Assembly: GCF_003018255.1 (NCBI RefSeq)
Contig: NZ_CP027440.1
DNA: 64,000 bases
From: Escherichia coli
GTDB lineage: Bacteria > Pseudomonadota > Gammaproteobacteria > Enterobacterales > Enterobacteriaceae
Strand: one strand, 5' to 3'
Under the pieces are notes generated by a model. That model searched no databases and had not been told where the DNA came from. It saw only the letters and a program-made list of their open reading frames with translations. Position numbers and translations under genes: made by a program. Below are positions 62,993 through 63,410 of this stretch, in pieces. Within the stretch, counting starts at the first letter, position 1. Each line of letters starts with the position of its first letter.

Positions 62993-63179
62993 ACCCTCTT
63001 CTATGAATAATCCCTGGCCCAAAAAGCCGGGGATTTTTTATATCTGCGTTCCGCTAAAAGGTGCAAATGATCAAGCTGTTGCAGCATTTTGCGTGACTGC
63101 TCGGGGAAGGCAAAACTGCCTCTGGGAAAGCGTTGCGCGGGGTCCGGCGCTCATCAACAATCGGGGAGTCAGCAAGGGG

Positions 63180-63325
63180 CTGAAACGGGAAAGCCCCTCC
63201 CGAGGAAGGGGCCTTGTATAAGGAAAGGGTTATGATGAAGCTCGTCATCATACTGATTGTGTTGTTACTCGTAAGTTTCGCAGCTTATTAACAGCCAATC
63301 AGAGGGGGGAGAAATCCTCCCTCAC
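63180..63325 (-). ncRNA. Sib-type antisense sRNA (antitoxin of a type I toxin-antitoxin pair) overlapping the ibs ORF
   Basis: Inferred from the presence of an Ibs toxin ORF on the opposite strand and established knowledge that Sib RNAs fully overlap ibs; exact ends are not determinable from sequence alone. Confidence 0.45.
63233..63292 (+). CDS. ibsE: Ibs-family type I toxin peptide (19 aa, MMKLVIILIVLLLVSFAAY)
   Basis: Seen in sequence: a 19-codon ORF encoding a hydrophobic peptide matching the Ibs family; located between yqiK and hldE where K-12 carries sibD/sibE; the D versus E assignment is uncertain. Confidence 0.7.
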
Positions 63326-63410
63326 CCTTGTTCCTTTACTTTAGGTTGAAAAAAAATCAGCGTCAATAGGCCCGCCTGCTACAAAGCGAGATCTGTGAAC
63401 CGCTTTCCGG

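Follow-up and report, generated by a model that had tools for sequence, protein, structure and literature searches.

A single-copy Sib/Ibs type I toxin-antitoxin module of mixed D/E sequence between yqiK and hldE in Escherichia coli

One intact Sib/Ibs type I toxin-antitoxin module very probably occupies the conserved site between yqiK and hldE in this Escherichia coli genome, as a single copy derived from an older duplication. The analysis covered a 64,000-nt stretch of contig NZ_CP027440.1 (the window). The plus strand of the module would yield, at a low level, the mRNA of a hydrophobic membrane toxin of 19 residues with the sequence of K-12 IbsD, and the minus strand a constitutive RNA of about 145 nt, Sib, with a promoter and terminator of its own. 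Sib would be fully complementary to the ibs open reading frame (ORF) and to its ribosome-binding region. Judged by sequence, the unit is a natural hybrid, with a SibD-type promoter, ORF and TRD1 and a SibE-type translation-initiation region and TRD2.

The yqiK-hldE intergenic region is 418 nt long (62993-63410). On its left is yqiK, which encodes a flotillin family protein (61331-62992, plus strand; a 553-aa ORF), and on its right the 3' part of hldE (63411-64000, minus strand), which runs off the window. Positions 62900-63500 (601 nt) are 100% identical to E. coli strain JNE23-011, whose annotation names yqiK and hldE as the flanking genes and includes a 60-nt CDS equivalent to 63232-63291. 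Both the flanking ORFs and this annotation confirm the placement between yqiK and hldE proposed in a first-pass annotation, which had been made from the letters of the window. An intrinsic terminator follows yqiK, with a hairpin of 10 pairs and then the T-run TTTTATATCT (63009-63041, plus strand). A second terminator-like hairpin, AACCGCTTTCCGGTT and then AGCCTTTTTT on the plus strand, lies at 63398-63412, immediately ahead of the hldE stop and overlapping the end of that gene. It could halt read-through from ibs or yqiK into the convergent hldE.

The toxin ORF comprises 19 codons and a stop at 63232-63291 on the plus strand (ATG at 63232, TAA at 63291) and encodes MMKLVIILIVLLLVSFAAY. The first-pass annotation had given this peptide exactly and assigned it to the Ibs family, correctly on the following evidence. 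The ORF is identical to K-12 ibsD at 60 of 60 nt, and its peptide is that of K-12 IbsD. The Pfam model Ibs_toxin (PF13956) matches with 40 bits, above its cut-off of 27, and 19 of 19 profile positions (1-19) are covered. RefSeq names the JNE23-011 CDS ‘type I toxin-antitoxin system Ibs family toxin’ (WP_001387081.1). At the yqiK-hldE site the ORF is kept intact in E. albertii, Kluyvera, Citrobacter and Phytobacter, and it is intact in all units examined, those of other genera included. An ORF of 19 codons is in itself no evidence of a gene; we consider this one real because of its identity to ibsD, the Pfam match, the RefSeq annotation and the conservation across genera. A 25-aa extended ORF, padded because the peptide is under the tool's 20-residue minimum, matched no Ibs model in NCBIfam.

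Upstream of the ORF, a Shine-Dalgarno-like sequence, AAGGAAAGGG, occupies 63220-63229 (plus strand), stopping 2 nt short of the ATG. All 12 E. coli units compared have the same sequence at 63220-63240. A candidate weak ibs promoter, TTGCGC-17-AACAAT, can be read from the sequence at 63133-63161 (plus strand). It matches the consensus at 7 of 12 positions, which is under the scan threshold, so the promoter scan missed it. By homology to K-12 ibsD, the ibs mRNA would extend over approximately 63168-63330 (plus strand), a segment whose fold is more stable than that of shuffled sequence (z = -4.8). The K-12 ibsD RNA is 163 nt long, with a 5' overhang of about 18 nt over Sib (PMC2943612), and we propose a start near 63168 because it reproduces both figures. 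The ‘+1’ cloning primer used for pBAD-ibsD begins at the equivalent of 63147 (PMC2943612), which leaves the 5' end uncertain between 63147 and about 63168.

The antisense partner, whose presence the first-pass annotation had only supposed, is found by covariance-model search. Rfam SIB_RNA (RF00113) matches 63217-63366 on the minus strand at 149.8 bits, against a gathering threshold of 56 (E = 1.8e-32). The match is full length (model positions 1-147 of 147) and has no non-canonical consensus pairs; the Rfam model takes in the promoter. With ends mapped from the K-12 sibD annotation, Sib runs from 63331 to 63187 on the minus strand, about 145 nt, and encloses both the Shine-Dalgarno sequence at 63220-63229 and the whole ORF at 63232-63291 on the plus strand. 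An antisense RNA covering the entire ORF and the initiation region is the defining geometry of Sib/Ibs (PMC2943612). The predicted fold (-54.8 kcal/mol, z = -4.8) consists of a closing stem, three hairpins and a terminator. In both the MFE and the centroid structures the terminator hairpin, at 63190-63215 (minus strand), has an 11-bp stem and a tetraloop and is followed by UUUCCC, a poor U-run. The promoter scan placed the Sib promoter, TTGACG-17-TAAAGT, at 63338-63366 (minus strand) and showed no other sigma-70-like site in 62950-63450. The interval 63130-63330 given in the first-pass annotation therefore covers the ibs side on the plus strand and falls short on the minus strand, where the full module with the Sib promoter reaches 63366. 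The fold of the ibs mRNA is a mirror of that of Sib, and a sub-gathering SIB_RNA match on the plus strand (63191-63339, 36.8 bits) was discarded as the mirror image of the minus-strand match and not a second gene. A match to mir-7 (E = 0.91) was attributed to chance.

In K-12, constitutive Sib is set against scarce ibs mRNA, and Ibs, if made, damages the membrane (PMC2943612). Two independent recognition domains, TRD1 and TRD2, discriminate cognate from non-cognate ibs mRNAs (Han et al., PMC2943612). With positions transferred from the SibC mapping in the same study, the TRD1 equivalent (about +46 to +68) lies at 63264-63286 on the minus strand, pairs inside the ibs ORF, and is of SibD type, its sequence being identical to that of K-12 SibD. 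The TRD2 equivalent (about +99 to +116, as defined in PMC2943612) aligns to 63216-63233 on the minus strand, pairs with the ibs translation-initiation region and is of SibE type, reading UCCUUAUAC where SibD has UCCUUCUGU. By analogy with K-12, pairing between Sib and ibs would begin at TRD1 in the ORF and at TRD2 in the initiation region, and the duplex would then spread, blocking translation and exposing the RNA to RNase III cleavage, so that no toxin is made. Repression and toxicity are thus carried over from K-12, and the transcription of both RNAs in this strain is presumed from identity to K-12 sibD.

The module might instead be a silent remnant that produces neither RNA or whose peptide is non-toxic. 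The weakness of the ibs promoter would fit such a remnant, as would the wording of the K-12 annotation, which calls IbsD a ‘putative toxic peptide’. We nevertheless regard this as highly improbable. The ORF, the Shine-Dalgarno sequence, Sib to +112 and the Sib promoter agree base for base with K-12 sibD/ibsD. Work in K-12 has detected the SibD RNA and activity of its 35-bp promoter (PMC12956327), and the toxicity of ibsD there was sufficient for co-transformation rescue assays (PMC2943612). The module is also conserved across genera. The promoter segment in question, the 35 bp upstream of the Sib start (63332-63366), is identical to the K-12 sibD minimal promoter and differs from that of sibE. 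In K-12 this minimal promoter is enough for NAD capping and is responsive to ppGpp/DksA (PMC12956327), and on the strength of the identity both properties are predicted here.

K-12 MG1655 carries sibD/ibsD and sibE/ibsE in tandem between yqiK and hldE with a period of 375-377 nt, as the first-pass annotation had noted; the tandem units, about 376 nt apart, share 85-92% identity. The sequence of the yqiK terminator occurs twice in K-12, once at the start of each unit, and its hairpin is thus part of the repeated unit in two-copy strains. The window has a single unit, again as first reported. There are no direct repeats in 62950-63450, which includes the intergenic region 62993-63410. Across the whole 64-kb window there is one SIB_RNA match at the gathering threshold, BLASTN of the unit against the window returned no second copy, and a six-frame regular-expression scan for Ibs-like peptides recovered the known copy alone. 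No second ibs ORF was thus found, and the peptide ORF proved conserved in relatives, other genera among them.

The single-copy state is a common strain polymorphism and nothing unusual. We searched with an 801-nt query running from the 3' end of yqiK to the 3' end of hldE, for which coverage of at least 80% in one place picks out single-copy loci only. About 1325 of 5426 complete E. coli genomes (24%) have this architecture, among them CFT073 and ST131 strains. Copy-number differences among strains have been described for type I toxins (PMC2887945). The allele of the window itself, at 99% identity or more, is present in 71 genomes over the whole interval and in 64 over 63205-63480; its carriers include the EPEC strain E2348/69, in several separate assemblies, and the mouse strain MP1. 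These counts bear on the idea that the hybrid single copy is an assembly artefact, two tandem units collapsed into a chimeric consensus. Collapse of tandem repeats about 376 nt long and 85-92% identical is conceivable in principle, and could give a chimera. The chance of this here is close to negligible: the single-copy architecture recurs in all of those complete genomes, the 64-71 carriers of the allele were sequenced independently, and the repeat units are different enough to resolve. In one further genome, E. coli EC0900 (NZ_CP158187.1), the queries match the hldE-side part only, at 22% and 49% coverage, and its yqiK-ibs region may be deleted or interrupted.

To place the duplication in time, the locus was recovered from other taxa by a DNA-pattern scan, with one genome per species. 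Citrobacter youngae, Kluyvera sichuanensis, two Phytobacter species and one further Enterobacteriaceae genome each have one unit between yqiK and hldE; E. albertii and Escherichia sp. E1V33 each have two. The inter-unit junction CAGCGTCAA-GAAGGTTTC..TAACACATATCCCTGG is common to K-12, E. albertii and E1V33, and the peptide order, FAAY and then FPTY, is the same in E. albertii and K-12. We conclude that the duplication predates E. coli, because E. albertii and E1V33 have two units with the K-12 junction; the single copy in E. coli then most likely reflects a secondary loss. At least four kinds of core occur among single-copy strains, namely FPTY (CFT073), FAAY (the window), FQAY (KY177) and FATY (LD67-1), and losses were therefore probably recurrent. 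Against this stands the reading that a single copy is the ancestral, never-duplicated state and that K-12-like strains gained a second copy later. The single units of Citrobacter, Kluyvera and Phytobacter at this site agree with it, but it is very unlikely given that both two-unit taxa with the K-12 junction lie outside E. coli, that E. albertii keeps the K-12 peptide order, and that at least four single-copy cores are what repeated independent losses would leave. Inter-unit junctions do not differ between species, which also argues against an independent duplication in E. albertii.

Compared with Kluyvera, the Sib-overlapping part of the unit differs at 17 of 168 positions and the upstream 5' region at 72 of 191, so constraint sits in the part that overlaps Sib.

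The course of the loss can be read in part from sites that separate the two K-12 units. All 14 such sites in 63256-63357 are D-type, and all four in 63208-63219 are E-type. E-type sites end at 63219 and D-type sites begin at 63256, which puts the breakpoint within 63220-63255, a stretch that is identical in D and E. In Sib coordinates, +1 to +112 is exactly K-12 SibD and the sequence from +113 on is SibE-type. Complementarity to the unit's own ibs is perfect in spite of the hybrid make-up, because Sib is encoded antisense to its target. Farther upstream, at 63040-63200, the 5' region mixes sites that resemble K-12 D with sites that resemble K-12 E, so that across the population ‘D’ and ‘E’ do not label units cleanly.

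One simple unequal crossover between K-12-like D and E units was considered, since tandem direct repeats classically undergo such events and a single hybrid unit would result. We rejected it as unlikely on the polarity of the hybrid, which is wrong. A deletion of this kind would keep the left portion of unit 1 and the right portion of unit 2, giving D on the left and E on the right. The window has the reverse, an E-type initiation region and TRD2 to the left of the D-type core, and the D-type sequence reaches to within 9 nt of the repeat end. Moreover, the two-copy strain PS_131_S11 already has the same hybrid unit in its hldE-proximal position, which points to conversion first and deletion second; this strain is a plausible intermediate on the path to the single hybrid. 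Because the observed unit is E-left/D-right where a one-step crossover gives D-left/E-right, at least two events are assumed. We infer conversion followed by deletion as the simplest path. A tandem duplication of about 376 nt would have arisen before E. coli and E. albertii split. Recombination between the repeats would later have left one unit, after or together with a gene conversion, and the conversion would have given that unit its SibE-type 5' UTR and TRD2 alongside a SibD-type ORF, TRD1 and Sib promoter.

Ibs peptides at yqiK-hldE were compared among PS_131_S11 (L004; 846-905 and 1223-1282), HYM1 (L005), KY177 (L008) and LD67-1 (L009). They vary mainly at residues 4, 9, 14, 17 and 18, and the C-termini observed are FAAY, FQAY, FHAY, FPTY and FATY. 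One peptide is yqiK-proximal in one strain and hldE-proximal in another, and the RefSeq label ‘ibsE’ tracks sequence rather than position. We offer, tentatively and as less than an even bet, that the site is a small recombination hotspot at which TRD1 and TRD2 are exchanged between tandem units and the new combinations become fixed when a unit is lost, the Ibs alleles representing diversification of specificity and not drift.

The closest known system is K-12 sibD/ibsD (b4447/b4664). Besides the ORF (60 of 60 nt), Sib from +1 to +112 and the 35-bp Sib promoter, the two have in common the strand arrangement and a position adjoining yqiK. The window differs in being SibE-type from Sib +113, a segment that includes TRD2, the ibs initiation region and the terminator; in its right flank, which is hldE-proximal sequence and not the inter-unit spacer; and at 12 of 191 positions in the 5' UTR. 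One change, in the Sib terminator stem, is private to the window relative to the K-12 units. With K-12 sibE/ibsE (b4611/b4666) it has in common the position beside hldE, the right flank and the type of the TRD2/initiation segment (1 difference in 32). The two differ at 7 of 60 nt in the ORF, where IbsE is MMKLVIILVVLLLLSFPTY, as well as in TRD1 and at three positions of the Sib promoter. The single-copy allele of the CFT073/ST131 type, annotated as ibsE, has the same architecture and 418-nt spacing and a nearly identical 5' region (3 of 191 differences). Its core is E-type (MMKFVIILVVLLLLSFPTY), with 8 of 60 differences from the window in the ORF and 6 of 76 in the 3' segment, and it is far commoner, in roughly 1250 genomes against about 70 for the allele of the window.

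Ldr/Rdl, Hok/Sok and ZorO/OrzO likewise pair a small hydrophobic toxin with a repressing antisense RNA, often lie in tandem within one intergenic region, and vary in copy number among strains (PMC2887945). Their toxin and RNA families are unrelated to those of Sib/Ibs, and in Sib/Ibs the antisense RNA extends over all of the ORF and initiation region (PMC2943612).

An Ibs family toxin is also present in the plasmid record NZ_CP114132.1 (E. coli NJS001, 438 kb) at about 82691-82800, with 84% DNA identity to the unit core; plasmids account for just 6 of about 19,000 places, this one included. Elsewhere in the window, Rfam matches an FMN riboswitch (RF00050) at 59602-59750 on the minus strand (120.9 bits, gathering threshold 66.2), which presumably leads a riboflavin gene, for instance ribB, and the ES173 sRNA (RF02753) at 12102-12165 on the plus strand (99 bits, gathering threshold 90).

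The family, its mechanism, the site and the variation in copy number among strains are already published, and the peptide is already in RefSeq. The present analysis shows that the Sib RNA half, which has no RefSeq annotation in this genome, is present. It also shows that ‘D’ and ‘E’ denote positions and that sequence does not follow them from strain to strain; names given by position or by similarity to K-12 can therefore mislead. On the hotspot reading, the window would hold a natural hybrid of SibD (TRD1) and SibE (TRD2), which, following the published chimera experiments, should be able to repress both K-12 ibsD and ibsE. Such a natural D/E hybrid may offer a ready-made test of the two-domain recognition model.
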